From Actinomycetes bacterium (GTDB lineage Bacteria; Actinomycetota; Acidimicrobiia; Acidimicrobiales; JAMCQF01): a stretch of DNA of 64,000 nucleotides. Below the pieces are notes generated by a model. That model made no database searches. It was not told the DNA's origin and was given only the letters and a program-made list of their open reading frames with translations. Shown here piece by piece: positions 2,829 to 63,092 of this stretch (the stretch's first letter is position 1; the number at the start of each line of letters is the position of its first letter). Made by a program: the position numbers and the translations under genes. The stretch lies in NCBI GenBank assembly GCA_021851885.1, contig JAJZBS010000002.1, positions 3,162 to 67,161 on the forward strand. The letters are read 5' to 3'.

Positions 2829-2938
2829 GGTCTTGTCGAACGGTCCGGTCGGGACAGTGGTCCCCATCGGTCTCGCCATCGGGTCAGCGTCGGTCGACCC
2901 GCCTCCCTGGGGCCCAGCGCCGGACCCGACGGCCACGG

Positions 2939-6883: not shown

Positions 6884-6898
6884 TAACGTAACACGTTA
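6884..6898. promoter_or_regulatory. Dyad operator site O1 (ACGT-N3-ACGT family)
   Basis: TAACGTAACACGTTA with perfect 6+6 arms. It lies in the divergent region between the KstD-like gene (-) and the LLM gene (+), followed by AAATAATGAT. Confidence 0.6.
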
Positions 6899-29756: not shown

Positions 29757-30551
29757 GTGGCGACGATCGCACAGGTGACGGCGGGCGTGCCGAACGTGTT
29801 CGAGAAGATGAAGTTCGGCTCGTCCCAGCACGACGAGGTCGCGGTCGGGTGGCCGGGCACCTCGAACACGGTCGCTGTCGGCGGCATCGACCGCGCCGGG
29901 CAACCGTTCGCCGCGTGGGACCAGGGGATCCCGAACGGGACCGGAATGAGGGCCCGCTGGGGCTGCGACGGCATCGACGCCTCCAGATTCATCTTGTGTG
30001 CCATCGGCGAGTTCCTCGACTCCGAGGGTGTGGAGCACAACTACCCGATCCTGCCGGTGTTCCGTGCCCTGTACTGGTCCGACGCCGCCGGGTTCGGAAC
30101 GTTCCGCGGTGGGCGGTCGATGAACGCCATGTGCCGGATCCACGGTGTGCCGGAGGTAACAGCTGCCTCGATCGGTGGGTGCTGGGACCGGCCGAATGCG
30201 CCGGGCCTCTTCGGCGGGTACCCCAACCGGCCGGTCGGCGTCGCCTTCGTCCAGGAGCACAACGTCGACGAGCTCATCGCCGAGGGGCGGGCCCCCACCA
30301 GCGTCTACGAGGCGACCGCGCTTGCCCGCAAGGAAGAGCGCGTGCGGCGCATGGCGCGGGGTGTTCCCTACGGCCGGTGGCTGTCGGGTTGGCTCGAACG
30401 GCGCCCGCCCGATTCGGTGCGGGGGATGTACGGCGAGTGGCCACACCGACTCACGGCCCCGCTGACCGACTGGGAGCCGCGGGAGCGGTTGCTCGACCCG
30501 GAAGTGAGCAAGGCCCGCGACGTTCCCATGGCCGAGGTCTCCCGCTACTGA
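29757..30551 (+). CDS. Hydantoinase B/oxoprolinase-family C-terminal fragment (probably a truncated gene)
   Basis: 264-aa ORF with a GTG start. SEGVEHNYPILPVFRALYWSDAAGFGTFRGGRSM resembles the conserved HyuB core, but full-length members are 500+ aa. An SD plus ATG at 29713 opens a different frame (MSDTTRSGG...). Confidence 0.4.
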   Translation: MATIAQVTAGVPNVFEKMKFGSSQHDEVAVGWPGTSNTVAVGGIDRAGQPFAAWDQGIPNGTGMRARWGCDGIDASRFILCAIGEFLDSEGVEHNYPILPVFRALYWSDAAGFGTFRGGRSMNAMCRIHGVPEVTAASIGGCWDRPNAPGLFGGYPNRPVGVAFVQEHNVDELIAEGRAPTSVYEATALARKEERVRRMARGVPYGRWLSGWLERRPPDSVRGMYGEWPHRLTAPLTDWEPRERLLDPEVSKARDVPMAEVSRY

Positions 30552-33905: not shown

Positions 33906-33920
33906 TTACGTTAGACGTAA
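33906..33920. promoter_or_regulatory. Dyad operator site O8 (best palindrome)
   Basis: CTTACGTTAGACGTAAG has perfect 7+7 arms (33905-33921). TAAGAT faces the plus operon and TAAGCA is on the other strand. The region is divergent. Confidence 0.65.
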
Positions 33921-34029: not shown

Positions 34030-35043
34030 ATGGGAGAAGCAGCAGCTGGAGCGGTGATCGATCCGCAGGACGAGTTCATGCACGAACCGACCGACGATCC
34101 CCAATTCAACGAGTCGATGTACTTCAACTTCGTCGACGGTGGCAGCGGGTTCGCCACACTGGTGCGGATCGGCAACCGTGTCAACGAGGGACACGCCGAG
34201 GTGACCGCGCTCGTGTACCAGCCCGGCGGCGGGGCTGTCATCCACTTCGACCGCAGCCCGATCACCGACAACAATGCCTTCGACACGGATGGCCTTCGCG
34301 TCGACGTCCGCAAGCCGTTGGAGCACCTGCAGCTCACCTACAACGGGAAGGGGCACCAGCTCGAACGGGGCACGGACCTCGCCGACCCGAAGGCTGCACT
34401 GAGTGCCGCCCCCGAGGTCCCGCTCGAGCTCGACCTCGCCTACGAGTCGCTGATCGACCTCTATGGCCTCAGCTCGGGCGACGGCGCCGGCGGCGGGATC
34501 GAGGGCGGCGAGAGCACCATCGCCACCGGTCACTACCAGGGGCCGTGCCGGGTCCACGGCACGATCACGGTGGGCGACGAGCGTCACGCCGTGTCCGGGC
34601 TCGGCTTCCGTGACCACTCGTGGGGGCCGAGGCGCTGGCAGGGCCCGACGTACTGGCGCTGGATCTCGTGCATGTGCGACGAAGCCAACGGTTTCGTGGT
34701 CTGGGTGAGCCGGATCGGGGACACGGTGCCCAAGCCGCATGGCATGGTCCTCCTCGACGGTGCGTTCAGGCGGATCGACGATGCGAACGTGACGAGCACC
34801 TACGGGCCGGCGCCTTACTACCCCGAGACCATGCGGATGCACATGGAGACGCAAGCTGGACCCGTCGACGCCACTGGCGAGGTGTTCGCCATGGTCCCGT
34901 TGCGTCATCGACGCGAGGGGCAGGTGGCGCGCCTGGGCGAGGCGCTGGTCCGGTACGAGCTCGAAGGGCGTGAGGGCTTCGGGATCGCCGAGTACCACGA
35001 CCTCATGATCGATGGGGTCCCCGCAGGGATGTCCGAGGCGTGA
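34030..35043 (+). CDS. Hypothetical protein (conserved-looking, beta-rich; RDHSWGPRRW motif)
   Basis: 337 aa with good coding composition. I am not confident of any family assignment. Confidence 0.55.
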   Translation: MGEAAAGAVIDPQDEFMHEPTDDPQFNESMYFNFVDGGSGFATLVRIGNRVNEGHAEVTALVYQPGGGAVIHFDRSPITDNNAFDTDGLRVDVRKPLEHLQLTYNGKGHQLERGTDLADPKAALSAAPEVPLELDLAYESLIDLYGLSSGDGAGGGIEGGESTIATGHYQGPCRVHGTITVGDERHAVSGLGFRDHSWGPRRWQGPTYWRWISCMCDEANGFVVWVSRIGDTVPKPHGMVLLDGAFRRIDDANVTSTYGPAPYYPETMRMHMETQAGPVDATGEVFAMVPLRHRREGQVARLGEALVRYELEGREGFGIAEYHDLMIDGVPAGMSEA

Positions 35044-35504
35044 ACGACGCCGAAGTGGCCCGAATGCTCGATGAGCGGGCCATCGTCGAGGTGACCCACC
35101 GCTACTGCGCTGCCTTGGACGGCCACGACTGGCAGGCACTGGAGCGGTGCTTCACACCGGACGCCGTGGCTGTCTACGGAGGTGTCCCCGGCGAGCACGA
35201 CGGCCTCGACGCGATCAAAGAGGTGTGCCGGGCCTCGTTGGAGCCACTCGACGCATCGCAGCACCTGGTCGCCAACCATCTGGTGGAGCTGGCAGGCGAC
35301 ACCGCCGCGTCGCGCTGCTACGTGCGGGCCCAGCACTGCCGGCGGGAGCTACCCGACGGCGAGAACTTCATGATCGCCGGGACCTACGAGGACGAATGGC
35401 TCCGGACCGCCGACGGTTGGCGCATCACGCGGCGCGTCCTCGCGGTCACCTGGACTGAGGGCAACCCCATGGTACTGGCGCGAAACCGCCGGGAGGGGCT
35501 GTGA
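35040..35504 (+). CDS. NTF2/SnoaL-like domain protein
   Basis: ERAIVEVTHRYCAALDGHDWQALERCFTPDAV...SQHLVANHLV, with GTGA overlaps on both sides. Confidence 0.75.
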   Translation: MNDAEVARMLDERAIVEVTHRYCAALDGHDWQALERCFTPDAVAVYGGVPGEHDGLDAIKEVCRASLEPLDASQHLVANHLVELAGDTAASRCYVRAQHCRRELPDGENFMIAGTYEDEWLRTADGWRITRRVLAVTWTEGNPMVLARNRREGL

Positions 35505-36508
35505 TCCCGGCCACCATGCGGGGGCTACGCTTCCACCGCCACGGTGGCCCCGAGGTGCTGGTGTGGGACGAGCTGCCGGTGCCCGAGCCGGGGCCCGGCG
35601 AGGTACTCATACGCAGCCGCGGCTTCGCCGTGAACTGGGCCGACCTGATGGAGCGGGCGGGGGTCTACCCCGGAGCACCGGATCCCCCGTACGTGATGGG
35701 CCACGATCTGGCCGGCGACATCGTGGCCCACGGGCCCGGCGTGGAAGGTCCCGCCATCGGAACCCGCGTCTTCGGGTTGCTGCCACAGGCGGGCACCTCC
35801 GCGGAGTGGATCGTCGCCCGTGCCGGACAGGTGTACCCGGTTCCGGAGGCGCTGACAGATGCGGAGGCAGCGGGTCTCGGTTCGCCGTTCCTCACTGCCG
35901 ACGCCGCGCTCGTCACCATGGGGCGCCTGCAGGCGGGCGAGACCGTCCTCGTGCACGCGGCAGCCGGGGGCTTCGGTTCGGCGACGGTGCAGCTGTGCAA
36001 GGCCTATGGAGCGGGCACGGTCATCGCGACCGCCGGTTCGCCCGAGAAGCTCCAGCGGGTGGCGACACTGGGCGCCGACGTGACGGTCGACTACACGACC
36101 GAGGACTTCGTCGAGGTCGTGAAGCGGGTCACGGACGGGCGTGGCGTCGACCTGGTCATGGAGTCGGTGGGCGGCGATGTCCTGGCACGCAGCTTCGACT
36201 GCGTGCGCCCGGCCGGCCGGTTGGTGAGCGTGGGGGCAAGTTCCGGCCGCAGCACATCGCGCTTCCGGCTGCAGACCCTGTTCGAGACCGGCATCACCGT
36301 CGGCGGCTTCACCCTCGGGCAGTGGATCCAGCACGACCCGGAGCTCGTCGCCGCGAGCGTCGAGCGGGTCCTGCGCGTGCTCGCCGCGGGGGCGATCCAC
36401 CCTCTCGTGGCCCAGGTGTTCAAGCCCGAGGACATCGCCGACGCACACGTCTATCTGGCCGGCCGGCAGTCGGTCGGCCGGACGATCGTGCTCTTCCCCC
36501 AATCGTGA
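35501..36508 (+). CDS. NADPH:quinone oxidoreductase-like MDR protein
   Basis: PEPGPGEVLIRSRGFAVNWADL... and AAGGFGSATVQLCKAYGA. Confidence 0.85.
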   Translation: MIPATMRGLRFHRHGGPEVLVWDELPVPEPGPGEVLIRSRGFAVNWADLMERAGVYPGAPDPPYVMGHDLAGDIVAHGPGVEGPAIGTRVFGLLPQAGTSAEWIVARAGQVYPVPEALTDAEAAGLGSPFLTADAALVTMGRLQAGETVLVHAAAGGFGSATVQLCKAYGAGTVIATAGSPEKLQRVATLGADVTVDYTTEDFVEVVKRVTDGRGVDLVMESVGGDVLARSFDCVRPAGRLVSVGASSGRSTSRFRLQTLFETGITVGGFTLGQWIQHDPELVAASVERVLRVLAAGAIHPLVAQVFKPEDIADAHVYLAGRQSVGRTIVLFPQS

Positions 36509-38282: not shown

Positions 38283-38843
38283 CTAGGTCCCGGCCGGCGG
38301 TAAGTGGGTCTCGCTCCGCCCGGCCGGCGGAGCCGCCCGGCCTGGCCGGTCGATCAGGTCCCAGGCCACGTCGAAGTCTCGGTGGCCGGCGACCTGCAGG
38401 TGCCGCACGGTGATCCTCCAGCCGCCGTGCCGCCGGGCCAGGACGTCGTGGTATTCGCCGAAGAGCCGGGCATCGGGGGTCGGTCCGGGAACGTGGTGCC
38501 ACGCCAGGACCGAGCTGGCGGCTGTGGCCTGGTCGCCGTCCAGGGTGACGACCGGGCTGCTCAGCTGGTGACTGGTGGCGGCGAACCGCCGGAGCCCGGC
38601 GGCCAGGGAGTGGGCCAGGTGATCGAGCCCTCGCCGCTCGCCGCCCATCCCAGGTCCGCGGTCGACAACGCAGTCCTCGGTGAAGACCTCCGCAAGCCGG
38701 TCGGTGGCGATGCGGTCGACGAGGTGGTAGTAGCGGTGCAGCACCTCGACGATGGCGGCACGGTCCTCTATCGCCCGCAGGCGCTGCTCCACGTCGCCGA
38801 TCTGAACGCCGGTCGCCGGCCCGTCGCCCTGGTGCTCCGCCAT
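38283..38843 (-). CDS. NTF2/SnoaL-like domain protein
   Basis: RLRAIEDRAAIVEVLHRYYHLVDRIATDRLAEVFTEDCV...TSHQLSSPVV. ATG 38843 has no SD and lies 10 nt from site O9 (short or absent leader). Confidence 0.75.
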   Translation of the reverse strand: MAEHQGDGPATGVQIGDVEQRLRAIEDRAAIVEVLHRYYHLVDRIATDRLAEVFTEDCVVDRGPGMGGERRGLDHLAHSLAAGLRRFAATSHQLSSPVVTLDGDQATAASSVLAWHHVPGPTPDARLFGEYHDVLARRHGGWRITVRHLQVAGHRDFDVAWDLIDRPGRAAPPAGRSETHLPPAGT

Positions 38844-38852
38844 AATTACCGA

Positions 38853-38867
38853 TAACGTAGGACGTAA
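38853..38867. promoter_or_regulatory. Dyad operator site O9
   Basis: TAACGTAGGACGTAA with a perfect core, fused to TAAAAT (38865-38870). The region is divergent. Confidence 0.6.
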
Positions 38868-38908
38868 AATCTGGACGCGCAAGGGATCGGGACCCGGGGA
38901 GGGACGCA

Positions 38909-39409
38909 ATGCCGGGACGTTGGGAAGCCTACGAGGAGCTGCAGCGGTACCCGCTGACGGCGGAACGACGCGACCTGCTCCTGGCCGAAGCGGTCGAGTG
39001 CGCAGTCACCTGGATCGATGCCGACGGCTGGCCGATGGGAGTGGTCCACTGGTTCGTGTGGGAGCGCGGGCGGTTCTTCGTGACAGCGGGGACAAGGCGC
39101 ACCCGGGTGGCAGCCCTGCGGGAGCGCGCCCAGTCCTCCGTCATCGTCTCCGGATCGGGCACGTCGCTCGGCCCGGGCCTGTCGGTCACCGCCGTGACCC
39201 GGGCCCTGGTGCACGACGACGAGGAGACATTGCGCTGGTTCGCCGCTGCACTGTCTGGCAAGGCACATCGAGGGAACCCCGCGATGGCGGCGCGTTTCGA
39301 ACGGATGCTGGTGGAGACCGATCGGGTGGTCATCGAGCTGGAGCCACTGCGATTCGTCTCCCACGACGGCGCGAGGATGGGTGCCGCCGTGCAGAAGCTC
39401 CCGGCGTAG
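38909..39409 (+). CDS. Pyridoxamine-5'-phosphate-oxidase-like (FMN/F420-binding split-barrel) family protein
   Basis: 166 aa; ...CAVTWIDADGWPMGVVHWFVWERGRFFVTAGTRRTRVAALRE... resembles PPOX-class proteins. GGGGAGGGA precedes the ATG. Confidence 0.55.
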   Translation: MPGRWEAYEELQRYPLTAERRDLLLAEAVECAVTWIDADGWPMGVVHWFVWERGRFFVTAGTRRTRVAALRERAQSSVIVSGSGTSLGPGLSVTAVTRALVHDDEETLRWFAAALSGKAHRGNPAMAARFERMLVETDRVVIELEPLRFVSHDGARMGAAVQKLPA

Positions 39410-40692: not shown

Positions 40693-41165
40693 CTGTGGTC
40701 GACCTGCCGACGGAGCAATTCCACGTCGGTGCCCGGGTCGGTGACCTGGAGGTGTCCATGGACCTGCTGGCGCAGGCGCTGGGCCTCAGGTGGGCGGTCG
40801 TCGTCGAGCGCGACCAGCGTGTGTGGACGCCGTCGGCCGGTGCCACCACGGTGCCGCTCCGGTTCACCTACTCGTGCCAAGGGCCCCAGCACGTGGAGCT
40901 CCTGCAGGGTTCGCCCGGCTCGTTGTGGGACGGGAACCATCTGCCTGGCCTGCACCATCTCGGCGTCTGGGCGGACGACGTCGCTGCTGAGACGGAAAGC
41001 CTCATCGATGCGGGCTGGACCGTCGATGGGGCCGAGCGGCCCCCCGAAGAAGGGTATGGAGTCATGAGCTATGTGAGATCTCCGGCCGGCCTGCTGGTCG
41101 AACTGGTCAGCCGGAGCGTCGAGCCCGCGTTCGAGCGGTGGTGGGCGGGCGGCGAGCTGCGATGA
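40677..41165 (+). CDS. VOC (glyoxalase/dioxygenase-like) family protein
   Basis: 162 aa; FHVGARVGDLEVSMDLL...HVELLQG...LHHLGVWADDV... is a VOC pattern. It uses the third ATG of the tandem repeat. Confidence 0.7.
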   Translation: MSVERPVVDLPTEQFHVGARVGDLEVSMDLLAQALGLRWAVVVERDQRVWTPSAGATTVPLRFTYSCQGPQHVELLQGSPGSLWDGNHLPGLHHLGVWADDVAAETESLIDAGWTVDGAERPPEEGYGVMSYVRSPAGLLVELVSRSVEPAFERWWAGGELR

Positions 41166-41719
41166 CCGTGGACGCAGAACGGACGTCCGACACCGGCCGA
41201 TCGCTGATCGCGGACGTGGAGCTCCTCATGGCCGAGCGGGCCATCCGGCGGGTCCTCCATGCGTACTCGCGTGGTGTCGACCGGCTCGACCTCGAGGCTG
41301 TGCGCGCCTGCTACTGGCCCGAGGGCACCGACGACCATGGGGATTACCGGGGCGGGGTGGACGGGTTCATCGACTTCCTGCGGGACGTTCTCGCTCGCCA
41401 TGACGCCACGAACCATTTCCTCGGGAACACATTGATCGACGTCGACATCGACGCGGGCGTGGCCCGTTCCGAAACGTACGCGATCGCTCATCACCGGCAC
41501 ACCCGGCGAGATGGGCAGCCGGCCGACATGGTCGCCGGCCTGCGCTACGTCGACCGTTTCGAGCGGCGCGCCGACGAATGGCGCATCGCAGCCCGGGTCT
41601 GCGCCTTCGACTGGTGGCGCAATGACCCGGTCAGAGGCGACGTCTCGTGGGGACCCGGGTTCGTCCTCGGCGTCCGCTCGAGCGACGACATCGTGTACCA
41701 CATCCTCGAAACGTCCTGA
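41162..41719 (+). CDS. NTF2/SnoaL-like domain protein
   Basis: ERAIRRVLHAYSRGVDRLDLEAVRACYWPEG...TNHFLGNTLI, with an ATGA overlap with the VOC gene. Confidence 0.75.
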   Translation: MTVDAERTSDTGRSLIADVELLMAERAIRRVLHAYSRGVDRLDLEAVRACYWPEGTDDHGDYRGGVDGFIDFLRDVLARHDATNHFLGNTLIDVDIDAGVARSETYAIAHHRHTRRDGQPADMVAGLRYVDRFERRADEWRIAARVCAFDWWRNDPVRGDVSWGPGFVLGVRSSDDIVYHILETS

Positions 41720-41723
41720 TCCC

Positions 41724-42401
41724 GTGTTGACGAGCGTGGTGCTCTTCATCGGCGGATCGTCGGGCGCAGCACAGTCGGAGGAGGCGGTGGACCGGGTGCT
41801 GGAGCACGTCCGATCGCGCTCCGGCGCCGTGGTGGCCCGGGGAGCCGCGGACGCCGGTCTGCTGGGAGGCGACACGACGCACGGGGCGGAGACTGCTGCG
41901 GGACCGGCGTTCACCGCCGCCGTCCACCTCAGCTTCGAGGACGGGGCACCCGAGCCGGAGCTGGTTTTGCAAGGGCTGGCCAAGACGCTGGACGGTGTCG
42001 CCGACCCGTCGGCCTGTGCCGTCGTCGCCGGCACCGAACACATCATCGTGCCTGGCCAACAGCAGCTGTTGCTGGCCATGGCCATCCGGCGGCTGCCGGA
42101 GCTCACCCACGAACGATTCGAGGAGCACTGGTCGACCGTGCACGCCGACCTCGGTCGCAGCGTGCCCGGTTCGGAGGGCTATCGGCAGGTCCGCACCGAC
42201 GATGCGCTCATTCGCCGCGTCGCACCGGCATCGGGATTCGGTCTCGTTGACCTCGATGGCGCCGCGCTGGCCTACTACTCGAGCCACGAGGCGATGCTGC
42301 GGATCCTGGGGGACCCTGACGTCTCGGGGCGGTTGATGGAAGACGAGCGGACCTTCATCGACCACAGCAGCTCGGCCCTGGTGTGCGGTTGGAGCCGCTG
42401 A
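41724..42401 (+). CDS. EthD domain-containing protein
   Basis: The C-terminal half, LLAMAIRRLPELTHERFEEHWSTVHADLG...GAALAYYSSHEAM, is EthD-like. GTG 41724 lies 5 nt after the previous stop; the start is uncertain. Confidence 0.6.
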   Translation: MLTSVVLFIGGSSGAAQSEEAVDRVLEHVRSRSGAVVARGAADAGLLGGDTTHGAETAAGPAFTAAVHLSFEDGAPEPELVLQGLAKTLDGVADPSACAVVAGTEHIIVPGQQQLLLAMAIRRLPELTHERFEEHWSTVHADLGRSVPGSEGYRQVRTDDALIRRVAPASGFGLVDLDGAALAYYSSHEAMLRILGDPDVSGRLMEDERTFIDHSSSALVCGWSR

Positions 42402-42975: not shown

Positions 42976-42996
42976 TACGCTTTACGTCATACGTAA
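42975..42996. promoter_or_regulatory. Dyad operator site O12 (two overlapping sites offset by 7 nt)
   Basis: In GTACGCTTTACGTCATACGTAA, the distal site TTACGTCATACGTAA has perfect arms. It is followed by TAAGCG. Confidence 0.6.
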
Positions 42997-43059
42997 GCGA
43001 TGGAGGGCGTGGGCCACCCACCTGGGTGTCGACCCAGCCGTACCACCGGAGGCCGATGC

Positions 43060-43578
43060 GTGAGACCGACAGCGGAGGAACTGCTGGCGAGCCTACGGCT
43101 GTCCCTGAACGACACCGTGGCGCTGAAGATCGAGGATCGGTGGGCGCGTTACGTCGCCACCGCCATGGACCTCGTGCTGCAGCACCTGCAGCTACGACTG
43201 GCAGGAGAGCTCGACACCATGGACGCCGACAGTCTCGACATGGCGGAGACCCTGGCGGCCGTGGCTGGGCAGGCTGTCCGCCACGGGGAGGAGGGCGGCC
43301 AGGACCAGGACAAGTGGTCTGCCCTGCTGCAGCGGCTCGGCACGGCGGCGCCGGGCGATCCCGCCCGGCGCGTCGATGAGGCGGTCGCCCGCAACGAGGC
43401 ACTCCGGGGGCGAGTCGTGGACGTGTTGCGGTGGCTCGACGAGATCGACCCGGACGACGTGGACCCGGAGCTGCACGGCGTACGGGATGAGCTGCACCGT
43501 ATGGTCCGGCGCCAGGTGGGGCGGCTCGTCCCGTTCGTGGAGCCGCTCTACATGAGCTTCCGGCCGGGAGGTGCGTGA
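43060..43578 (+). CDS. Hypothetical helical protein (172 aa), translationally coupled to a kinase-like gene
   Basis: GGAGG lies 7 nt before GTG 43060. Acidic, helix-like sequence, with no family recognised. Its stop overlaps the next gene's start. Confidence 0.55.
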   Translation: MRPTAEELLASLRLSLNDTVALKIEDRWARYVATAMDLVLQHLQLRLAGELDTMDADSLDMAETLAAVAGQAVRHGEEGGQDQDKWSALLQRLGTAAPGDPARRVDEAVARNEALRGRVVDVLRWLDEIDPDDVDPELHGVRDELHRMVRRQVGRLVPFVEPLYMSFRPGGA

Positions 43579-44591
43579 TGGCTGGCGAGCAGCGTGATCT
43601 CGACGAAGGGCGCATCGCCGGGTACCTGACCGAACGTCTCGGCGCCGACTCGCTCGATGTGACCAGCTTGCGGCGCAACGTGGGCGGCATGTCCCGGGAA
43701 ACGTGGTTCGCTGAGGTGCACTGGGCGCGTTCAGGCCAGCAGCACGACGACTCTCTCACCTTCCGGGTGGACCACCCGGAAGGGTCGGTGGTACCCGTCA
43801 GCCTGGAACGCGAGTACCAGACGTTCCGCGCCATCGGCACCTCTTCGGTGCCGGTCGCCCAGACGCTCTGGTACGAGGACGATCCCGAGTTGGTGGGCCG
43901 AGCGCCGTTCTACGTGCGGCGTACCGTGCCCGGCTCGGCCTCGGCCGGGCAGCTCTTCGCCCCCGGCAACGAGAATCGGCGACAGAAGATCGGTGTCGAC
44001 CTGGCCGAAAAGCTCGCCGCCGTCCACACGATGGATTGGCGGGCGGCAGGTCTGGCCGAATTCATGCGGGTCCCCGAGCGGCCTGAAGATCATGCGCTGT
44101 TCGAGCTCGAGCACTACGAACGGTCGTACCGTGCTGCGCAACCCGAGCCGATGCCCGTCGTCGAGGTGCTCCTGTCGTGGCTGAAGCGCAACGCACCAGG
44201 CGACGTGCAGCGCACGTCACTGGTGTGGGGTGACGTCGGTGTCGGCAACTTCATCTACGCCGGTGACGAGGTGGTCGCCCTCACCGACTGGGAGCAGGCC
44301 CATCTTGGTGATCCGATGAAGGATTGGGCCTCCGCCCTGTGGCGGGGTGTCGACGCACTGGCGCCGAAGGAGATGCTGTTCGAGGCGTACGAGGGAGCCA
44401 GCGGATTGCGGATCGATGAGGACCGCATCAACTACTACTCCGTGTTCATCGACGCGGAGTACGTGTGCACGTCGTTCCCGCTCCTCGGCGAGCTCGGCCT
44501 GGACCACACCCGCGACGCGACCTTCGCACGCCTGGGGATCGGTGTCCCGTACATGTGCATGGACCACGGCCTCGGGATGATCGGCTACTGA
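43575..44591 (+). CDS. Phosphotransferase (APH/choline-kinase-like) family protein
   Basis: ...GGMSRETWF..., FYVRRTVPG, and a Brenner-like motif LVWGDVGVGNFIY followed by LTDWEQAHLGDP. It resembles the kinase domain associated with ACAD10/11 and FadE genes. Confidence 0.75.
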   Translation: MMAGEQRDLDEGRIAGYLTERLGADSLDVTSLRRNVGGMSRETWFAEVHWARSGQQHDDSLTFRVDHPEGSVVPVSLEREYQTFRAIGTSSVPVAQTLWYEDDPELVGRAPFYVRRTVPGSASAGQLFAPGNENRRQKIGVDLAEKLAAVHTMDWRAAGLAEFMRVPERPEDHALFELEHYERSYRAAQPEPMPVVEVLLSWLKRNAPGDVQRTSLVWGDVGVGNFIYAGDEVVALTDWEQAHLGDPMKDWASALWRGVDALAPKEMLFEAYEGASGLRIDEDRINYYSVFIDAEYVCTSFPLLGELGLDHTRDATFARLGIGVPYMCMDHGLGMIGY

Positions 44592-44703: not shown

Positions 44704-46206
44704 TCAATCGGCGAGCATGACCCGTAGCTCGTGCTTCAGTACCTTGCCGGTGGCGTTGCGGGGCAGCTCGCCGACCCGCACCCAACGGCGTGGGACCTTG
44801 TAGCCGGCGAGGCGATGGCGAACCCACGACTCGAGCTCGGCGTCGGGTGGCGCCGGCTCGACGAGCACGGCCGTGACCACCTGTCCCCAGGTCGGGTCGG
44901 CCGTCCCCAGCACGGCGACGTCCCCGACGGCGGGATGTTCCAGGAGCGCGGCCTCGACTTCGCGCGGGTACACGTTCTCACCGCCGGTGATGACCATGTC
45001 GTTGCGCCGGTCGGTGATGTGCAGACGCCCGCGGCTGTCGCGGAACCCGATGTCGCCGGTGTGCATCCAGCCCCCGCGCAGGGCCTCGGCCGTCGCGTCG
45101 GGGCGGTTCCAGTAGCCGCGCATCAGCGACGGCGCACGGCAGACGACCTCACCCAGCTCCCCGGGGGGAACCGGGATGTCGTCGTCGTCGACCACGGCGA
45201 CCTCGAACGAGACGATCTCGCTGCCGGCGGACGACAGCTTCTCCTCGTCGTTGGGGTCGTGGTCGGCCGGCCGCACGATGGTGGAGGCACCGCTCTCGGT
45301 CATGCCGTACTGCTGCAGCATGTCGCAACCGAATCCGTCCATGGCCCGCGCGAGCAGCCGGGGGGTGATGGACGCCCCGCCGTACACGATCTGGCGCAGG
45401 TCCGGCGGGGGCGAGCTCGCCATCTCGGGGCTGTCGAGCAACATGGCGATCATGGTCGGCACCAGGACGGTGGTGGTCACGTGCTCCTCGGACATCGCCG
45501 CCAGGCACTGCTGCGGCGAGAATTCCGGCAACATCGCGACACTCCCTCCGACGACGATGTGCGCGTAGGCCAGGAACGCTGCGATGTGGAACATCGGCAG
45601 GGCCGCCAGGTGCACGTCCGTCGGCCGGAGCTGCAGCTCCGCACAGTTGACCAGGACCCGGGCGGTGAACGCGACTCGGTCGATCATGGCCCCCTTGGGC
45701 CGACCGGTCGTGCCACTCGTGTACAGGATGAGCGCGGTGAGGTCCGGATCCGTGGGATCTGCCGTCCCGTCCGGGACGGCGGCAGCCAGCAGGTCTTCGT
45801 ACCGCTCCACGCCGTCCGCCTCGCCGAGGCCGAAAACGTGCGTAACGCCACACTCCGTTGCCAGCGCCGCCGACCTGGTGAGCTGCGACCGCCCGCCGAT
45901 CAGCACAGCCGGCGTGCAGTCGGCGAGGATGAACGACACCTCGGGGTCGGCGAGCCGGGTGTTGATCGGCACCAGGGTGAAGCCCGACCGCAGGCAGGCC
46001 GCCTGCGCCTCGATGTACTCCGGTTCGTTGGCGGCCAGCAGCGCGACACGGTCGCCGGGACGCAGACCCAAACGGCGGAGGGCGGCACCGAGCCGGCCCG
46101 TTCGCTCGTGCAGTTCGCCGAACCGGATGCGCCGGCCGCTGCCTACCACGGCGACCCGCTCACCGTGGGCCGCCGCCACACCCGCTACCAAGTCGAGGTA
46201 CCACAT
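44704..46206 (-). CDS. Acyl-CoA synthetase (AMP-forming, FadD-like)
   Basis: YTSGTTGRPKG and GWMHTGDIG motifs. ATG 46206 is preceded by GGGAGAG. Paralogous to 14714-16264. Confidence 0.9.
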   Translation of the reverse strand: MWYLDLVAGVAAAHGERVAVVGSGRRIRFGELHERTGRLGAALRRLGLRPGDRVALLAANEPEYIEAQAACLRSGFTLVPINTRLADPEVSFILADCTPAVLIGGRSQLTRSAALATECGVTHVFGLGEADGVERYEDLLAAAVPDGTADPTDPDLTALILYTSGTTGRPKGAMIDRVAFTARVLVNCAELQLRPTDVHLAALPMFHIAAFLAYAHIVVGGSVAMLPEFSPQQCLAAMSEEHVTTTVLVPTMIAMLLDSPEMASSPPPDLRQIVYGGASITPRLLARAMDGFGCDMLQQYGMTESGASTIVRPADHDPNDEEKLSSAGSEIVSFEVAVVDDDDIPVPPGELGEVVCRAPSLMRGYWNRPDATAEALRGGWMHTGDIGFRDSRGRLHITDRRNDMVITGGENVYPREVEAALLEHPAVGDVAVLGTADPTWGQVVTAVLVEPAPPDAELESWVRHRLAGYKVPRRWVRVGELPRNATGKVLKHELRVMLAD

Positions 46207-46246
46207 GACTCTCCCGATGGGTCGAGGTCCGATGGATATGCGCCCT

Positions 46247-46261
46247 TTACGTTCAGCGTCA
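46247..46261. promoter_or_regulatory. Dyad operator site O13
   Basis: TTACGTTCAGCGTCA with one core mismatch, between divergent FadD genes. GATACTAGTACACT lies downstream. Confidence 0.5.
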
Positions 46262-46337
46262 GATACTAGTACACTCGTGGGTGCGTTCGGGGATCCCCCC
46301 CGCCGCCCACGCCGGAGCGGCAAGGAAGTGATGACCG

Positions 46338-47888
46338 ATGTTGATCAGCGATGTCGTGCGCCGCAACGCCCGGTACTTCGGCGACATGCAGGCCGTCGTC
46401 GTGCCTGACGGACCGACGCGGACCTGGCGCGAGCTCGACCAGCGGACGGACCGGCTGGCCAACGCGCTGCTGTCGCTCGGGCTCGCCGCGGGCGATCGGC
46501 TGGCCATGTACGCCCCCAACTGCGGCGAGTACATCGACTTCTTCTTCGCGTGCGCCAAGTCCGGGGTCATCGGTGCGGCCCTCAACACCCGGCTCGCTCC
46601 CCACGAGACGAGCGCCTACCTGTCGTATGTTGAGCCGACCGCCGCGCTGGTGCACGCCGATCTCCTCCCGGTCGCCCGCACATGGCTTGCCGAGGTGCCC
46701 TCGGTGCGGCACGCCATCGGCTTCGGCGGTGACCACGGACTGGCATTCGACCTCGAGACACTGATCGGCGCAGCGTCCGCCACGGCCCCGGTCGTCCAGA
46801 TCGCCCCCGATGACGTCTACATGCTCGGCGCGACCAGCGGTACCACGGGCATCCCGAAGGCAGCCATCCTGACCCATGGGAACGCCATCGCCGCCATCGT
46901 GAACTGGGCGATGGAGATGGTGATCGCCGAGGGCGGCACCGCACTGCAGAACATCCCCTACTTCTTCAACCCGGGCGGCCCGTCGGGACTCCACCCGGTG
47001 CTCCTGAAGGGTGGGCGCACCGTGATCCCGCCGGCGTTCGACCCGATGGAGTTCCCGAAGCTGGTCGAGGAGTACGGCGTCACCCACACGATCATCGTCC
47101 CGACCATGGTCCAGATGGTGGTGTCTCAGCCGGGTATCGAGTCCTACGACCTGTCGTCCCTGCTCGGGGTCATGTCCGGTGGTTCGCCGTTTCCGGCACC
47201 CGTGCTGAAGCGGGCACGCGAGGTGATGGGCGACGTCTTCAACCCGACCTACGGCATGGCCGAGAGCTACTCGTGCGGTACCGCGCTGCGCCCGCAGAAC
47301 CTCTTCACCGAGGGCACGGAACAGCAGATGCGCCAACTCGGCTCCATCGGCAAGCCGCACACGCTGATGAACGTGCGGGTGGTCGACGGCGAGGGCAACG
47401 ACGTGCCCCACGACGGGGAGACATCCGGAGAGATCCTGGTGTCCGGCCCGTCGGTGTCCCCCGGCTATTACCGGATGCCCGAGGAGACCGAGCGCAGCCG
47501 TGAGGGCGACTGGTTCCACACCGGAGACGTGGCCGTGGTCGATTCGGAGGGTTTCATCACCATCGTGGACCGGTTGAAGGACATGATCATCACCGGGGGC
47601 ATCAACGTCTTCAGCATCGAGGTGGAACGCGCCCTCGAGCAGCACCCTGACGTCGCCATGGTGGCCGTCATCGGACTGCCCCATCCGCAGTGGGGCGAGG
47701 CGATCCACGCCGTCGTCGTCCGGCGTGAGGGTGCCACCGTGACGGAGGAGGAGCTGATGGCGTTCGCCGCCGAGCGGCTGACCTCCTACAAAAAGCCCCG
47801 TTCGGTCGAGCTCGTCGACTCGCTCCCGATGGGGGCGACCGGCAAGGTCTTGAAGAAGGAGCTGCGGGCCGAGCGCGGCATTGCCTGA
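46338..47888 (+). CDS. Acyl-CoA synthetase (AMP-forming, FadD-like)
   Basis: Starts MLISDVVRRNARYFGD and has TSGTTGIPKA. Paralogous to 17395-18951 (both contain APNCGEYIDFFFACAK). Confidence 0.9.
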   Translation: MLISDVVRRNARYFGDMQAVVVPDGPTRTWRELDQRTDRLANALLSLGLAAGDRLAMYAPNCGEYIDFFFACAKSGVIGAALNTRLAPHETSAYLSYVEPTAALVHADLLPVARTWLAEVPSVRHAIGFGGDHGLAFDLETLIGAASATAPVVQIAPDDVYMLGATSGTTGIPKAAILTHGNAIAAIVNWAMEMVIAEGGTALQNIPYFFNPGGPSGLHPVLLKGGRTVIPPAFDPMEFPKLVEEYGVTHTIIVPTMVQMVVSQPGIESYDLSSLLGVMSGGSPFPAPVLKRAREVMGDVFNPTYGMAESYSCGTALRPQNLFTEGTEQQMRQLGSIGKPHTLMNVRVVDGEGNDVPHDGETSGEILVSGPSVSPGYYRMPEETERSREGDWFHTGDVAVVDSEGFITIVDRLKDMIITGGINVFSIEVERALEQHPDVAMVAVIGLPHPQWGEAIHAVVVRREGATVTEEELMAFAAERLTSYKKPRSVELVDSLPMGATGKVLKKELRAERGIA

Positions 47889-51913: not shown

Positions 51914-52936
51914 GTGAATATTGACCACCCGTCCACCCGCAGCGAGACCCGGCCCGTGACGTCCTCCGCACCAGGCACATCTGAACTTGTGGTCAGCGAC
52001 AGCGTCCGTCATGCCGCGCGCCTGATCACCCAGATCGAGAACGGGGTCCCGGCCGCCCGCGCGGTCCTGGCCGAGTTACTGCCCCACTGCGGCTCGGCAC
52101 AGCTGGTCGGCATCACCGGCCCGCCGGGAGCGGGTAAGAGCACACTCACCGCGTCGCTCATCAAGGAGCTGCGGTCACAGGGCCGGAGCGTCGGGGTGAT
52201 CGCCGTCGACCCGTCGAGCCCCTTCTCCATGGGTGCCCTGCTCGGTGACCGTGACCGGATGCTCGAGGCGGCCAGCGGCGACCCTGGTGTCTTCATCCGC
52301 TCGCTCGCCTCGCGAGGTGTCCCGGGCGGGCTGGCCGCAGCCGTGAACGACGTCGTCGACGTGATGGACGCCATGGGCAAGGACGTGGTGATCGTGGAGA
52401 CCGTCGGCGTGGGCCAGGGTGAGCTGGAGATCGCCAAGATCGCCCACACCGTCGTGCTCGTGTTCGTCCCCGGGTACGGCGACGCGTTGCAGGCCATGAA
52501 GGCCGGGATCACGGAGATCGCCGACGTGGTTGCAGTCAACAAAGGCGACCTGGCCGAGGCGTCCAGGGCGGTCCAGGAACTGCGCGGCCAGGACTACGTC
52601 CGGCACGACCCGACGGCGGACCGGACCTGGGTGGTGCCGGTACAGAAGGTGTCGGCCCTCCGCAACGAGGGCATTGCCGAGCTCGTGGGGCTCATCGACG
52701 ACCACTACCGGTTCACAGCCCAGAGCGCCTGGCGGAGCGAGATCGAGCGCAACCGCCGCCACGCACAGTTCATGGCGTTCGTGACCGAGCGGCTGCGGGC
52801 CGAGCTGGCGTCGATCGACCTCGACGCCTTCGACGCCGGCTGGCTGCGTGATCCGTACGCGGCAGCAGAGGAATTCGTCACCGAGATCGTGAAGGCCCGT
52901 GCGGACAGAGGCGCCGTGGGCCTGGCAGCGAAATGA
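51914..52936 (+). CDS. meaB: Methylmalonyl-CoA-mutase-associated G-protein chaperone (MeaB/ArgK family)
   Basis: P-loop GITGPPGAGKST, VETVGVGQ and NKGD. The start is uncertain: GTG 51914 abuts the -10-like hexamer, and in-frame GTGs at 51956 and about 51989 are possible. Confidence 0.85.
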   Translation: MNIDHPSTRSETRPVTSSAPGTSELVVSDSVRHAARLITQIENGVPAARAVLAELLPHCGSAQLVGITGPPGAGKSTLTASLIKELRSQGRSVGVIAVDPSSPFSMGALLGDRDRMLEAASGDPGVFIRSLASRGVPGGLAAAVNDVVDVMDAMGKDVVIVETVGVGQGELEIAKIAHTVVLVFVPGYGDALQAMKAGITEIADVVAVNKGDLAEASRAVQELRGQDYVRHDPTADRTWVVPVQKVSALRNEGIAELVGLIDDHYRFTAQSAWRSEIERNRRHAQFMAFVTERLRAELASIDLDAFDAGWLRDPYAAAEEFVTEIVKARADRGAVGLAAK

Positions 52937-52949
52937 GAGCGAGGAACTG

Positions 52950-54620
52950 ATGAGCCAGGACGTTTCGACCGATTCCTTCGAGGCCCGCAAGCACGAGTGG
53001 GAGCAGCGCCGGGCGCGCTATGCCGACAAGTTGCGCCCGGGCAAGACGCTTTCGGGCCTGCCGGTCAAGACCGTCTACACGAAGGAGGACGTCACCGACA
53101 GCGATCTCGACGAGATGCCTGGCGTCTACCCCTTCACCCGTGGGCTCTACCCGGACGGCTATGCGCTCACCCCGTGGATGCAGCAGATGGTGTTCGGCTA
53201 CGGCACCATCGAGGAGACCCGCCAGAAGATGGAGAAGATGGTCGAGGAGGGCATGGAGGGCTACTTCGGCCACAAGGTCTTCAACACCGTCTACGACATC
53301 CCGTGCATGTACGGCATCGACGCCGACGATCCCGAGGCGGTCGGCAACCTCGGTCAGTGTGGGGTGCACATGAGCACCGGCGACGACTACGACGAGCTGA
53401 TCCGCGGCTGGGACCTGGAGTCCACGAACTTCTCGATGATCACCGGCGACAACTGCCTCCCTGCCCTCGCCCTGCTGGCGGCCGCGGTCGAGCGCCGGGG
53501 CGAGCCGTTCTCGAAGATGCACGGCAACTCGATGAACTGGTACCCCCGCATCGCCGTGCAGGACGTGCCGTCGTGGGAGCCCAAGTGGGGTTACGCCCTG
53601 ATCATCGATCTCGTCAAGTGGGCGATGGAGAACGCGCCCGACTGGAACCCGGTCAACATCTTCATGTACGGCATCTCCGAGGCGGGGGCCACCCCCGTCC
53701 AGGAGCTCGCCTACGGCCTGGCCTGGGGCAAGTCCATCATCGACGCCGGCCTGGCGGCCGGCCTGGCGCCTGACGACTTCATCGGCCGCCTGTCGTTCCA
53801 GATCGGCTGCACGGTCAACGTCTTCGAGGAGGTGGCCAAATTCCGGGCACACCGTCGCATGTGGGCGAAGATCTGTAAGGACGCCGGAGCCACCAAGCCG
53901 TCGAACATGCTGGCCCGGGTCCACGTGCACACGAGCGGGTACGTCCTGACCCAGCAGCAGCTGCTCAACAACACCGGCCGGATCACTCTCCAGACCCTGG
54001 CCGCCGTGCTCGGGGGCGTCGCCTCGATCCACACCTGCTCCTACGACGAGGCCGTCGGGGTGCCCACCGAGGAGTCCCACCGGACGGCGCTGCGCACGCA
54101 GCAGATCCTGATGTGGGAGAGCGGGCTGCGCGAGGTGGCCGACCCGCTCGGGGGCTCGTACTTCGTCGAGCAGCTGACCGACGACATGGAGGCGGCCGCC
54201 TGGGAGATCTACGACGAGATCGAGGCCGCCGGTGGCTACCAGCGCGGGATCGAGACCGGCGAGATCAAGCGCGCCATCGACAACTCCTCCTACGAGCTCA
54301 AGAAGATGGTCAACAGCGGTGAGCTGCCGGTGGTGGGCGTCAATCGCTATGTCACGGACGAGCAGGAGAACTACGAGCCGTTCCGGATCGATGAGTCGAT
54401 CGAAGAGAAGGCCAAGGCCCGGCTGCAGGACTACCGGGCACGGCGCGACGAGACCGCCGTCAGGGCGGCGCTCGAGAACGTGCGGGTGGCGTGCGAGGCG
54501 CTGAAGGAAGGCACGGGTTCGCTGATGCCTGCGCTGGTCGACGCAGCCCGGGCCGGCGCCACCAACGGCGAGATGATGGTGCCGATGCGCGACGCGTTCG
54601 GCTGGTTCGTCAGCGAGTGA
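52950..54620 (+). CDS. B12-dependent acyl-CoA mutase large (substrate-binding) subunit, divergent
   Basis: YPFTRGLYP, EVAKFRAHRRMWAKI, and ALRTQQILMWESGLREVADPLGGSYFVEQLT are mutase-family blocks. The expected RQYAGF and GTIQNDILKE blocks instead read QQMVFGYG and HGNSMNWYPRIAV. Confidence 0.8.
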   Translation: MSQDVSTDSFEARKHEWEQRRARYADKLRPGKTLSGLPVKTVYTKEDVTDSDLDEMPGVYPFTRGLYPDGYALTPWMQQMVFGYGTIEETRQKMEKMVEEGMEGYFGHKVFNTVYDIPCMYGIDADDPEAVGNLGQCGVHMSTGDDYDELIRGWDLESTNFSMITGDNCLPALALLAAAVERRGEPFSKMHGNSMNWYPRIAVQDVPSWEPKWGYALIIDLVKWAMENAPDWNPVNIFMYGISEAGATPVQELAYGLAWGKSIIDAGLAAGLAPDDFIGRLSFQIGCTVNVFEEVAKFRAHRRMWAKICKDAGATKPSNMLARVHVHTSGYVLTQQQLLNNTGRITLQTLAAVLGGVASIHTCSYDEAVGVPTEESHRTALRTQQILMWESGLREVADPLGGSYFVEQLTDDMEAAAWEIYDEIEAAGGYQRGIETGEIKRAIDNSSYELKKMVNSGELPVVGVNRYVTDEQENYEPFRIDESIEEKAKARLQDYRARRDETAVRAALENVRVACEALKEGTGSLMPALVDAARAGATNGEMMVPMRDAFGWFVSE

Positions 54621-54652
54621 TCATCAACCCCGAACGCGTGAGATAGGAGTAG

Positions 54653-55063
54653 GTGGTGTCGAAGGAGCACATCAAGGTCCTCCTGGCCAAGAAGAAGATC
54701 GACGTCCACGGGCGCGGCACCAAGCTGCTCGCCCGCGAACTGCGCGACGCCGGGATGGAAGTCGTCTACTTCCGGTTCGGTGTCGTCGATGAGATCGCCG
54801 ATGCTGCGGTGCAGGAGGACGTCGACGTGGTCGGCGTGAGCGTCATGACCAGCGGCCAGATCCAGATCGCCCGCGGCCTCATCCCCGCGCTGAAAGCGCG
54901 TGGGCTCGACAATGTCCTGGTCATCATGGGGGGCATCATCCCCGAGGTCGACTACGAGCCGCTGTACGAGCTTGGCATCCACCGTTGCTTCGCCCCGGGC
55001 CTGCCTGGTGGAGCGGTCGCCGAGTACATCAGGGAGAACGTCGGGACCGCCACGCTCGGTTGA
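54653..55063 (+). CDS. Acyl-CoA mutase small (cobalamin-binding) subunit
   Basis: 136 aa with the DxHxxG motif (IDVHGRG), GVSVMTSG, and the MGGIIP Rossmann-like B12-binding domain. AGGAG lies upstream, with a GTG start at 54653/54656. Confidence 0.85.
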   Translation: MVSKEHIKVLLAKKKIDVHGRGTKLLARELRDAGMEVVYFRFGVVDEIADAAVQEDVDVVGVSVMTSGQIQIARGLIPALKARGLDNVLVIMGGIIPEVDYEPLYELGIHRCFAPGLPGGAVAEYIRENVGTATLG

Positions 55064-56023: not shown

Positions 56024-56569
56024 ATGTCCACCGGCGAGCGCAAGCCTGATTCCGCACCAGCGAAGCCACGTCGTGGCAGGCAGTCCCCGAATGATCGGGT
56101 ATTGAAGGCCGCCGAACCGGCCGGCAAACTCCCCGATCCCGTCGGGGAGACGGTCAGCATCGGTGAGCTGGCGAGGCGGACGAACGTGTCGACGCGGACC
56201 ATCCGCTACTACGAGGAGCTCGGCATCCTGCCCGAACCGGAGCGGACGTCGGGAGGCACCCGGCGGTACCCGACGGATTACATCTTCTACGTGGAAGGGG
56301 CAAAGATCCTGAAGCAGCTGGGCTTCGGGCTCGAGGAGATCGCCGAGCTGGGCAAGTTCGCGCTGACCGGGGCATCGGCGTCCAAGCGGACGCGCGCCAT
56401 CCTTCAGCAGAAGCTCGGTGAGCTCAACCACCGGATCGGGGTGCTCGACCGCTTGCACGACCTGGTGGAGCAGGCGTCCTCCGATCCGACGGCGAAGGAC
56501 CTGCCGGTGCCCGAGCTCCTCCGCTGGGTGACCGAAGAGAACGGCCTCCGGGCGGTCGCCGGCGACTGA
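56024..56569 (+). CDS. MerR family transcriptional regulator (paralog 1)
   Basis: HTH region IGELARRTNVSTRTIRYYEELGILPEPERTSGGTRRYP. GGGTGAGGG precedes the ATG. About 75% identical by eye to 63093-63602 over the core. Confidence 0.88.
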   Translation: MSTGERKPDSAPAKPRRGRQSPNDRVLKAAEPAGKLPDPVGETVSIGELARRTNVSTRTIRYYEELGILPEPERTSGGTRRYPTDYIFYVEGAKILKQLGFGLEEIAELGKFALTGASASKRTRAILQQKLGELNHRIGVLDRLHDLVEQASSDPTAKDLPVPELLRWVTEENGLRAVAGD

Positions 56570-59971: not shown

Positions 59972-59986
59972 GTACGATTAACGTCC
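59972..59986. promoter_or_regulatory. Degenerate dyad O18 in a divergent promoter region
   Basis: GTACGATTAACGTCC within AACGATACGTACGATTAACGT. TACCAT (60002) is followed after 6 nt by ATG 60014, which looks leaderless. Confidence 0.3.
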
Positions 59987-61306: not shown

Positions 61307-61321
61307 TTACGTTGAACGTTA
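61307..61321. promoter_or_regulatory. Dyad operator site O19
   Basis: TTACGTTGAACGTTA with a perfect core, followed by TAGATAAGAT. AAGGAGG and GTG 61348 come next. Confidence 0.6.
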
Positions 61322-62991: not shown

Positions 62992-63092
62992 GCTCCACGG
63001 GACGGCGAGCGACGGATCCCTGAACGGTCGGCACCAGGACGGGTCGGTACCACGACGGACCGCCCATTCCTTCGAGCACGGTGAGGTCGCAT

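Follow-up and report, generated by a model that had tools for sequence, protein, structure and literature searches.

Linkage of an orphan protein, a W-type kinase and a DUF7064/DUF7065 protein suggests an ATP-dependent dehydration module in an actinobacterial catabolic island

A group of genes for a putative three-component, ATP-dependent dehydration module was found in a 64,000-nucleotide (nt) stretch of an Actinomycetes bacterium (assembly GCA_021851885.1, contig JAJZBS010000002.1, positions 3,162 to 67,161), hereafter the window. The components are a small helical protein, a kinase with the aminoglycoside phosphotransferase (APH) fold of a subfamily here called W-type, and a protein with the domains DUF7064 and DUF7065. 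We consider it rather probable, and far from certain, that the first two phosphorylate an alcohol and that the third eliminates the phosphate. The genes concerned are the following:

43060 to 43578, plus strand: small open reading frame (ORF) with a GTG start, 172 amino acids (aa), an all-helical orphan and the proposed obligate subunit of the kinase
43575 to 44591 (start possibly ATG 43578), plus strand: APH-fold kinase of the W-type subfamily (WGDVGVGN), Pfam APH 2e-22
34030 to 35043, plus strand: DUF7064/DUF7065 protein, AttH-like double beta-barrel, proposed phosphoester (C-O) lyase, Pfam DUF7064 2e-20 and DUF7065 5e-12
35040 to 35504, plus strand: SnoaL_4 (NTF2-like) protein, possible double-bond isomerase or accessory enzyme, Pfam SnoaL_4 5e-37
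35501 to 36508, plus strand: medium-chain dehydrogenase/reductase (MDR) of the PIG3/quinone oxidoreductase type, probable NAD(P)H-dependent C=C reductase, TIGR02824 5e-78

Linkage of the small orphan protein and the kinase

The TGA stop codon of the small ORF (43576-43578) overlaps the start of the kinase gene, by 4 nt (GTGA) if the latter begins with GTG at 43575 and by 1 nt if it begins with ATG at 43578. A protein 100% identical to the kinase, P0001, has 337 aa, so its gene caller used ATG 43578. For the small ORF, position 43060 was taken as the start instead of the upstream ATG at 43000, because the homologues align from residue 1. The G+C content of third codon positions was 0.84 in both genes alike, which is of the coding type, in a window with an overall G+C content of 69%.

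From the letters alone, the product of the small ORF had been described as a 172-aa helical protein of no known family. This description was borne out by the ORF and its helices, and no match was found in Pfam, NCBIfam, or PDB sequences. An exhaustive phmmer search of 1.84 billion proteins gave a family of 38 representatives at 50% identity, nearly all of them full-length with ~140 to 195 aa, and an indexed search returned 97 hypothetical proteins, none with a Pfam domain. Conservation in the family is found in the N-terminal helix (MRPxxxELLxSLRxSLNxT..P..EDRWARY...AMDLVLQHLxLR) and in the C-terminal helix (RDE..RLVRRQ.DR...V.PL.MSF.P), with a variable middle part. The AlphaFold2 model of the small protein has five helices (pLDDT 86, pTM 0.69), and a Foldseek search with this model in PDB retrieved only generic helical bundles with a best E value of 0.5. 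As far as these searches reach, the small protein is a genuine orphan of narrow distribution.

The gene neighborhood was analyzed in 18 genome loci retrieved via the kinase, within 10 kb on either side, using tblastn with every protein of the window. In each of the 18 loci, the gene immediately preceding that of the kinase encodes a member of the small-protein family (family profile, E 4e-83 to 5e-27), with an RTGA stop/start overlap in 11 of them and gaps of 15 to 48 nt in the other 7. Head-to-tail fusion of the two proteins was observed in the metagenomic protein P0093 (511 aa), in which residues 1-169 match the small protein (E 2e-23); this protein is known from one 4.2-kb contig, so a frameshift artifact is possible. 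The small protein and the W-type kinase would together make up one kinase, probably a heteromer. A different gene dosage was seen in locus L103 (9037-13068, minus strand), which has two W-type kinases in tandem with glyoxalase and MDR genes between them, a single small-protein gene upstream of the first kinase, and a convergent DUF7064 gene.

Relationship of the W-type kinase to other APH-fold kinases

The kinase contains the motif SLVWGDVGVGNFIY...LTDWEQAHLGDP. The sequence-only reading had seen in it an APH kinase whose Brenner-motif His is replaced by Trp and whose gene overlaps the small ORF, and both features (WGDVGVGN and the GTGA or 1-nt overlap) were found. The residues R64, which replaces the ATP-binding Lys, E80, W218-G-D220, N225, and D238-W-E are invariant in the W-kinase family, among them all those expected of the kinase fold, namely, the catalytic Asp D220, the Mg-binding Asn N225, and the DxE/DFG-like Asp D238. 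Given this invariance of R64, E80, W218, D220, N225, and D238, the kinase seems to be an active enzyme, and the Trp is characteristic of the whole family.

Close homologues of the kinase, ~160 in number and all labeled "phosphotransferase family protein," came from Streptomyces, Sphaerisporangium, Thermobifida, Acrocarpospora, Acidimicrobiia, and one proteobacterial metagenome-assembled genome (MAG). The family profile matched only six PDB sequences, namely, 3dxp (5e-30), the ACAD11 kinase domain (4e-27 and 6e-26), 9o56 (6e-22), Rv3168 (3ats, 3e-20), and 9fsg (1e-13). These matches place the kinase in the ACAD10/11-like branch of APH proteins and not among the antibiotic kinases; its placement against the latter had been left for checking, and in the profile search the best solved relatives were 3dxp and the ACAD11 N-terminal domain. 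Within this branch the W-kinases are a subfamily of their own.

It was also considered that the kinase might be a xenobiotic or antibiotic phosphotransferase, with the small protein as an unrelated cotranscribed gene or a regulator. The Pfam APH assignment, weak NCBIfam matches to APH(3') (1e-6) and macrolide Mph(F) (1e-3), and the old annotation of Rv3168 (PMC3691515) would agree with such a function. It is nevertheless very improbable: the scores for resistance families were all far under their cutoffs, e.g., 28 bits for the NCBIfam APH(3') model with a cutoff of 205, the conserved neighborhood is catabolic and not one of resistance genes, and the small protein is linked to the kinase in 18 of 18 loci and fused to it once.

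The change from His to Trp is not unique to the W-kinase family, as Rv3168 also has Trp (LLWGDARVGN). The CoA-contact arginines of ACAD11 (PMC12440821), of which R86 adjoins the alphaC Glu, are not kept in the family; the equivalent of R86 varies between R, F, W, and H, and that of R176 is L, F, or M in an uncertain part of the alignment. The loop GDVGVGN carries no basic residue two positions after the Asp, whereas ACAD11, 3dxp, and Rv3168 have one, and it may be speculated that the small subunit compensates for its absence.

Association of a DUF7064/DUF7065 protein with the kinase

A DUF7064/DUF7065 homologue was encoded near the kinase in 16 of the 18 loci and an MDR homologue in 15. The two loci without the lyase-like gene are one that ends at the end of its contig and one that is the closest relative of the window and is split in the same way. 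In Gemmatimonadaceae, Steroidobacteraceae, and proteobacterial MAGs, the genes for the DUF7064/DUF7065 protein, the small protein, the kinase, and the MDR follow each other in one tight operon, and in L013, L014, L017, and L102 the lyase-like gene and the kinase gene share one operon with the MDR gene directly downstream of the kinase. The order in the metagenomic locus L102 is acyl-CoA dehydrogenase (ACAD), DUF7064/DUF7065, small protein, kinase, MDR, SnoaL_4, and, after further genes, thiolase and short-chain dehydrogenase/reductase (SDR). In L011 and L012 a SnoaL_4 homologue immediately follows the kinase, and in L102 it follows the MDR gene.

In the window, the genes for the lyase-like protein, the SnoaL_4 protein, and the MDR form an operon (34030-36508) with overlaps of 4 nt between the genes. 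The best PDB matches of the MDR were the 2-haloacrylate reductase 1wly (7e-55) and quinone oxidoreductases, and by these relatives its class is probably that of C=C reductases rather than that of zinc alcohol dehydrogenases.

A precedent for the pairing of a kinase with a lyase comes from Sterolibacterium denitrificans, in which 25-hydroxysteroid kinase (25-HSK) and a separate phosphate-eliminating lyase spend ATP to dehydrate a tertiary steroid alcohol (PMC8449060, PMC11061730). As a single sequence, the DUF7064/DUF7065 protein of the window matched in PDB only the two sequences of 25-phosphosteroid lyase (25-PSL), the AttH-fold protein of that system, and did so weakly (E 0.12 and 0.39). A profile of 12 members raised the match to 25-PSL to 5.8e-5 over three collinear segments, with AttH next at 0.22, and aligned GLGFRDHSWGPR with LGSRDRSWGVR of 25-PSL, giving the common motif R-D-x-S-W-G-x-R. 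The AlphaFold model, built with 36 homologues, reached a pLDDT of 93 and a pTM of 0.90. In the Foldseek search with this model, the 25-PSL structures 9g4c, 9fzn, and 9g2i came out on top (E 2.6e-14, TM ~0.65, ranks 1 to 5), followed by kievitone hydratase (1.4e-9) and then AttH and fungal Diels-Alderases, which puts 25-PSL ahead of other AttH-fold proteins by about five orders of magnitude in E value. Entry 9g4c is a complex of 25-PSL with phosphate and desmostadienone. The protein was also related to the NCBIfam Rv3169 family NF053593 (49.7 bits, E 2.6e-13) without being a member of it at a cutoff of 150. No publication on 25-PSL or DUF7064/DUF7065 was found in the literature searched, and the authors of the 25-PSL structures, released in January 2026, may already have noted the actinobacterial homologues.

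With the same AttH-like fold and an E value of 1e-9, hydratases have to be weighed as well. The DUF7064/DUF7065 protein could be a hydratase similar to kievitone hydratase or CrtC, or another carbocation-type enzyme that eliminates no phosphate, and would instead make or use the alcohol; the kinase would then act on that alcohol for another purpose, such as activation for substitution, transfer, export, or detoxification. Over the N-terminal part of the alignment, many family-invariant residues (R46, R50, E57) are not the same in 25-PSL, which points in this direction, as does the existence of DUF7064 homologues without a kinase within 6 kb. We regard this explanation as rather unlikely, in view of 25-PSL being clearly the best structural and the only significant sequence match, of the strict operon linkage with the kinase, which a phospho-lyase needs and a hydratase does not, and of the Rv3168-Rv3169 gene pair, which repeats the pattern (PMC5340868).

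A dyad shared by the lyase and kinase operons

Two perfect copies of a dyad were located in the window:

33907 to 33919, no strand: perfect dyad TACGTTAGACGTA, ~110 nt upstream of the lyase operon, putative operator
42983 to 42995, no strand: perfect dyad TACGTCATACGTA, ~65 nt upstream of the small ORF, putative operator

These are the only perfect copies of TACGT-N3-ACGTA in the 64 kb, one before the lyase operon and one before the small-kinase operon, and the latter is part of the palindrome TTTACGTCATACGTAAG (42981-42997). Up to one mismatch was tolerated by 9 sites in the window (0.37 expected) and up to two mismatches by 26 (8.7 expected). Many of the sites with up to two mismatches are located in promoter or divergent gaps, and a dozen or more operons of the island are preceded by one. 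In other genomes, the small gene is preceded by the dyad at a distance of 77 nt in L009 and of 18 nt in L005, and the lyase gene has a site closely before it in L003, L005, L006, and L007; the dyad is kept at equivalent places before the lyase, small-kinase, and enoyl-CoA hydratase operons.

The sequence-only reading had placed the kinase under the same dyad as the ACAD gene at 60014. The dyad is real, but as a link between these two genes it is unspecific, and the ACAD copy, at 59973, has two mismatches; the pair of enoyl-CoA hydratase and SDR genes is preceded by a one-mismatch copy at 61308. The putative operator dyad is a mark of the entire 60-kb catabolic island, and within it the kinase is linked most closely to the lyase. 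Sites in the window include those at 6885, 17315, 20492, 27961, 30608, 33907, 38854, 40580, 42983, 51896, 56730, 59973, and 61308, and candidate regulators are the MerR-family proteins encoded at 56024-56569 and 63081-63602 and a TetR protein at 10866-11549.

The ACAD11-type dehydrogenase and the canonical kinase of its relatives

The ACAD gene at issue is as follows:

60014 to 61219, plus strand: ACAD11/FadE2-type ACAD, in the same putative regulon, probably no partner of the W-type kinase

This protein contains SEPDVASSDATNI...INGRKWWITG and matched mouse ACAD11 (2e-124) and 4hr3 from M. abscessus (2e-114), with a short-chain ACAD next at 7e-42. Residues specific to ACAD10, ACAD11, and LvaC are R626, H634, R637, and the catalytic D753 (PMC12440821); the first three have their equivalents in RLGPGRIHHAMR and the last in VDGPDAVH. 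The earlier assignment to the ACAD10/11-FadE2 clade therefore holds, on both the E value of the ACAD11 match and the full R/H/R/D active-site set.

The pairing of this ACAD with the W-type kinase, also part of that earlier reading, found support in neither direction. A distance of 15 kb separates the two genes in the window, and within 10 kb on either side of the kinase an ACAD11-type gene was encoded in none of the 18 loci. Conversely, the W-type kinase, the small protein, or the lyase was present in none of 80 metagenomic loci with relatives of the ACAD at 62 to 79% identity. Of these loci, 27 combine an identity of 73% or more with no less than 1 kb of sequence upstream of the ACAD gene; in 14 of them an APH kinase gene ends a few bases before that gene, and in 2 more a kinase is close by. 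A truncated copy of this kinase was also seen in two shorter loci. All 16 ACAD-adjacent kinases carry HGD[FY]R.DN in place of the WGDVGVGN of the W-kinase family, and they score 23 to 86 bits on the W-family profile compared with more than 500 bits for its members. With a canonical kinase beside the ACAD in about half of the closest relatives, the usual bacterial split version of ACAD10/11 appears to consist of canonical kinase and ACAD. The ACAD of the window lacks this neighbor, and relatives at up to 71% identity never have it; the loci concerned are L019-L076. A second APH kinase that could serve the ACAD was looked for in the window and is not present there, the W-type kinase being its sole APH gene.

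These data bear on the mechanism originally suggested, in which the small protein and the kinase would phosphorylate a 4-hydroxyacyl-CoA in the manner of LvaA and LvaB and the ACAD at 60014 would eliminate the phosphate to give a 2-enoyl-CoA, as a split actinobacterial ACAD10/11. Several observations are compatible with it: 3dxp and the ACAD11 kinase domain are the best solved relatives of the kinase, the ACAD has the R/H/R/D set of ACAD11 (PMC12440821), an adjoining kinase, present in half of its closest relatives, is missing beside this ACAD and the W-type kinase is the only APH gene available in the window, a degenerate island dyad lies upstream of the ACAD, and acyl-CoA synthetases and SDRs are encoded nearby. 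The mechanism is unlikely all the same, considering the counts of 0 of 18 and 0 of 80, the different, canonical HGD[FY]RxDN kinase used by the ACAD relatives with its low score on the W-family profile, and the missing conservation of the CoA contacts R86 and R176 in the W-kinases. Moreover, the small protein is bigger than LvaB (19 versus 12 kDa; PMC6692424), is encoded on the other side of the kinase, and has no relatives detected beyond its own family. What stood of the comparison with the lva system is the concept of a kinase with a small partner, and phosphorylation followed by elimination is still the best reading of the kinase; the conserved eliminating enzyme, however, is the lyase-like DUF7064/DUF7065 protein, which the sequence-only reading had not noticed, and not an ACAD.

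Other genes of the catabolic island

The acyl-CoA synthetases and several SDRs that had been listed as further lva-like parts are all present in the window, the former at these positions:

44704 to 46323, minus strand: acyl-CoA synthetase
46338 to 47888, plus strand: acyl-CoA synthetase

Genes that recur in the actinobacterial loci are those for these two synthetases, an ordinary ACAD (47915), the enoyl-CoA hydratase and SDR (61348, 62215), a thiolase (3775), and a B12-dependent acyl-CoA mutase. The ACAD at 47915 was rejected as the eliminating enzyme on account of its normal ACAD architecture, its YE...GT region, and its conservation beside the synthetases; it looks like a standard dehydrogenase, with the catalytic Glu read by eye. 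The mutase set (51914-55063, plus strand), conserved beside the kinase cluster in the actinobacterial loci, encodes a MeaB-like GTPase and an acyl-CoA mutase whose large subunit and B12-binding subunit are separate proteins, with an SDR gene after them. Among solved structures, the large subunit matched the 2-hydroxyisobutyryl-CoA mutase HcmA best (5e-99), slightly above methylmalonyl-CoA mutase.

A 315-aa protein encoded at 2067-3014 (minus strand) had no match in Pfam or NCBIfam. Its homologues adjoin the small-kinase pair in L003, L004, L007, L010, and L011, which makes it a further uncharacterized member of the cluster.

Four SnoaL_4 paralogues are encoded in the window (8200-8679, 35040-35504, 38283-38909, and 41138-41719), along with two glyoxalase-fold proteins, three luciferase-like monooxygenases, two FAD_binding_2 flavoproteins similar to KstD or fumarate reductase, and an EthD protein. 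This mix of enzymes is reminiscent of steroid or terpenoid-type catabolic islands. The ORF with the EthD domain (41511-42401, plus strand) overlaps the SnoaL_4 ORF at 41138-41719 (plus strand) by ~200 nt, and since the domain covers only residues 196-286, the real gene probably starts much later. The match of the 264-aa ORF at 29757-30551 (plus strand) to the Hydantoinase_B/oxoprolinase profile is confined to the C-terminal part (positions 345-483 of 519), so that it may represent a fragment or else a small subunit that stands alone.

Proposed reaction sequence

In the sequence of steps that we favor, the heteromer of small protein and W-type kinase would use ATP to phosphorylate a hydroxyl group of an intermediate of the surrounding acyl-CoA or lipid pathway. 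The DUF7064/DUF7065 protein would then eliminate the phosphate and leave a C=C bond; the resulting alkene would be isomerized and/or reduced by the SnoaL-like protein and the PIG3-type reductase, and the neighboring beta-oxidation enzymes would continue the degradation. The substrate may be a CoA ester, which the neighborhood suggests, or a free alcohol as for 25-HSK. The coupling of kinase and lyase is supported genetically by synteny in 16 of 18 loci, by single operons in several phyla, and by the perfect dyads in common.

Several points weigh against this scheme. The lyase and kinase genes of the window belong to separate operons 8 kb apart, the small-kinase operon being that at 43060-44591. 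The similarity of the lyase to 25-PSL is remote (~16% identity, TM 0.65), and hydratases and Diels-Alderases have this fold as well. Among its six matches, the kinase is nearer to 3dxp and the ACAD11 kinase domain than to 9fsg, the weakest. The latter, a 379-aa "aminoglycoside phosphotransferase-like protein," is presumably 25-HSK, an assignment that we base on its length and on the neighboring depositions. 25-HSK, moreover, is active as a monomer without a small subunit, and its gene is unlinked to the lyase gene (PMC8449060). Finally, two DUF7064 homologues, in L100 and L101, have no kinase within 6 kb. A split layout like that of the window would give the same result, and they represent either such an arrangement or a kinase-independent use of the fold. 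Both are DUF7064/DUF7065 homologues of ~50% identity (L100, 6001-7023; L101, 6001-7035); one is flanked by a thiamine pyrophosphate enzyme and an acyl-CoA synthetase, the other by SnoaL_4 genes and an ATP-dependent enzyme similar to hydantoinase and acetone carboxylase.

A wider claim would be that of a flavin-independent, three-component alcohol dehydratase that works at the cost of ATP on acyl-CoA-type intermediates, has an obligatory orphan subunit, and serves as a widespread alternative to LvaC and ACAD10/11. We put this forward tentatively and would sooner doubt than assume it.

Dehydration by a kinase and a lyase at the cost of ATP is, to our knowledge, known from a single system, the anaerobic degradation of the cholesterol side chain. 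From the present locus, this logic seems to extend to a conserved core of five genes, for the lyase, the orphan subunit, the W-type kinase, the C=C reductase, and the SnoaL-like protein. The core spans Actinomycetota, Gemmatimonadota, and Proteobacteria and is embedded in acyl-CoA catabolism. The locus offers a testable hypothesis for the orphan small family, for DUF7064 and DUF7065, and for Rv3168-Rv3169 of Mycobacterium tuberculosis, for which it would, if true, be the first functional one. It also separates two look-alike systems that annotation pipelines lump together as "phosphotransferase family protein," as the ACAD11-type ACADs use their own canonical kinase.

Comparison with known systems

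The kinase shares a broad APH subgroup with those of LvaAB-LvaC and ACAD10/11, with the ACAD11 N-terminal domain and 3dxp as the best solved relatives, and a genuine ACAD11-type ACAD is encoded in the same island. In contrast to these systems, the W-type kinase has WGDVGVGN in place of HGD[FY][KR]xDN and does not conserve the CoA-contact arginines of ACAD11, and the conserved eliminating partner is an AttH-fold protein and not a flavoprotein. Rand et al. in 2017 reportedly placed lvaB downstream of lvaA. The pair of LvaA and LvaB resembles the present one in having a small, essential-looking partner protein, in phosphorylation followed by elimination, and in the context of CoA esters (PMC12440821, PMC11342911, PMC6692424), and differs in the size and place of this partner, LvaB having ~12 kDa (PMC6692424) compared with 19 kDa (172 aa) and a gene upstream of the kinase here.

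For the locus of Rv3168 and Rv3169 in M. tuberculosis we know of no small subunit. The two genes form one operon, which is repressed by the neighboring Rv3167c acting on a palindrome (PMC5340868). Rv3168 (3ats/3att), once annotated as a putative aminoglycoside resistance enzyme, has Arg in place of the ATP-binding Lys (PMC3691515), and it shares with the W-type kinase both this replacement and the Trp for the Brenner His (LLWGD versus LVWGD). As in the present core, the kinase gene stands beside a gene of the Rv3169 family, to which the DUF7064/DUF7065 protein is related, and with both partners related, this is an independent recurrence of a W-type kinase paired with an AttH-like protein. The relationship is distant, with a kinase profile E value of 3e-20 and a lyase score of ~50 bits under a cutoff of 150.

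The closest system is that of 25-HSK and 25-PSL, which likewise consists of an APH-fold kinase and a separate AttH-fold protein, dehydrates via a phosphoester, and belongs to the catabolism of a lipid side chain; 25-PSL is also the best structural and the only significant sequence match of the DUF7064/DUF7065 protein of the window. The genes in Sterolibacterium are unlinked, whereas the present genes are operonic in many lineages, and the hosts here are Actinomycetota, Gemmatimonadota, and Proteobacteria. The present core adds a PIG3-type reductase and a SnoaL-like protein, and it is surrounded by genes for acyl-CoA enzymes; Mo-hydroxylases were not seen in the window. The module is therefore best filed as a variant of the logic of 25-HSK and 25-PSL, which differs from that system in the kinase subfamily, the orphan third component, the core with reductase and SnoaL-like protein, and the setting.

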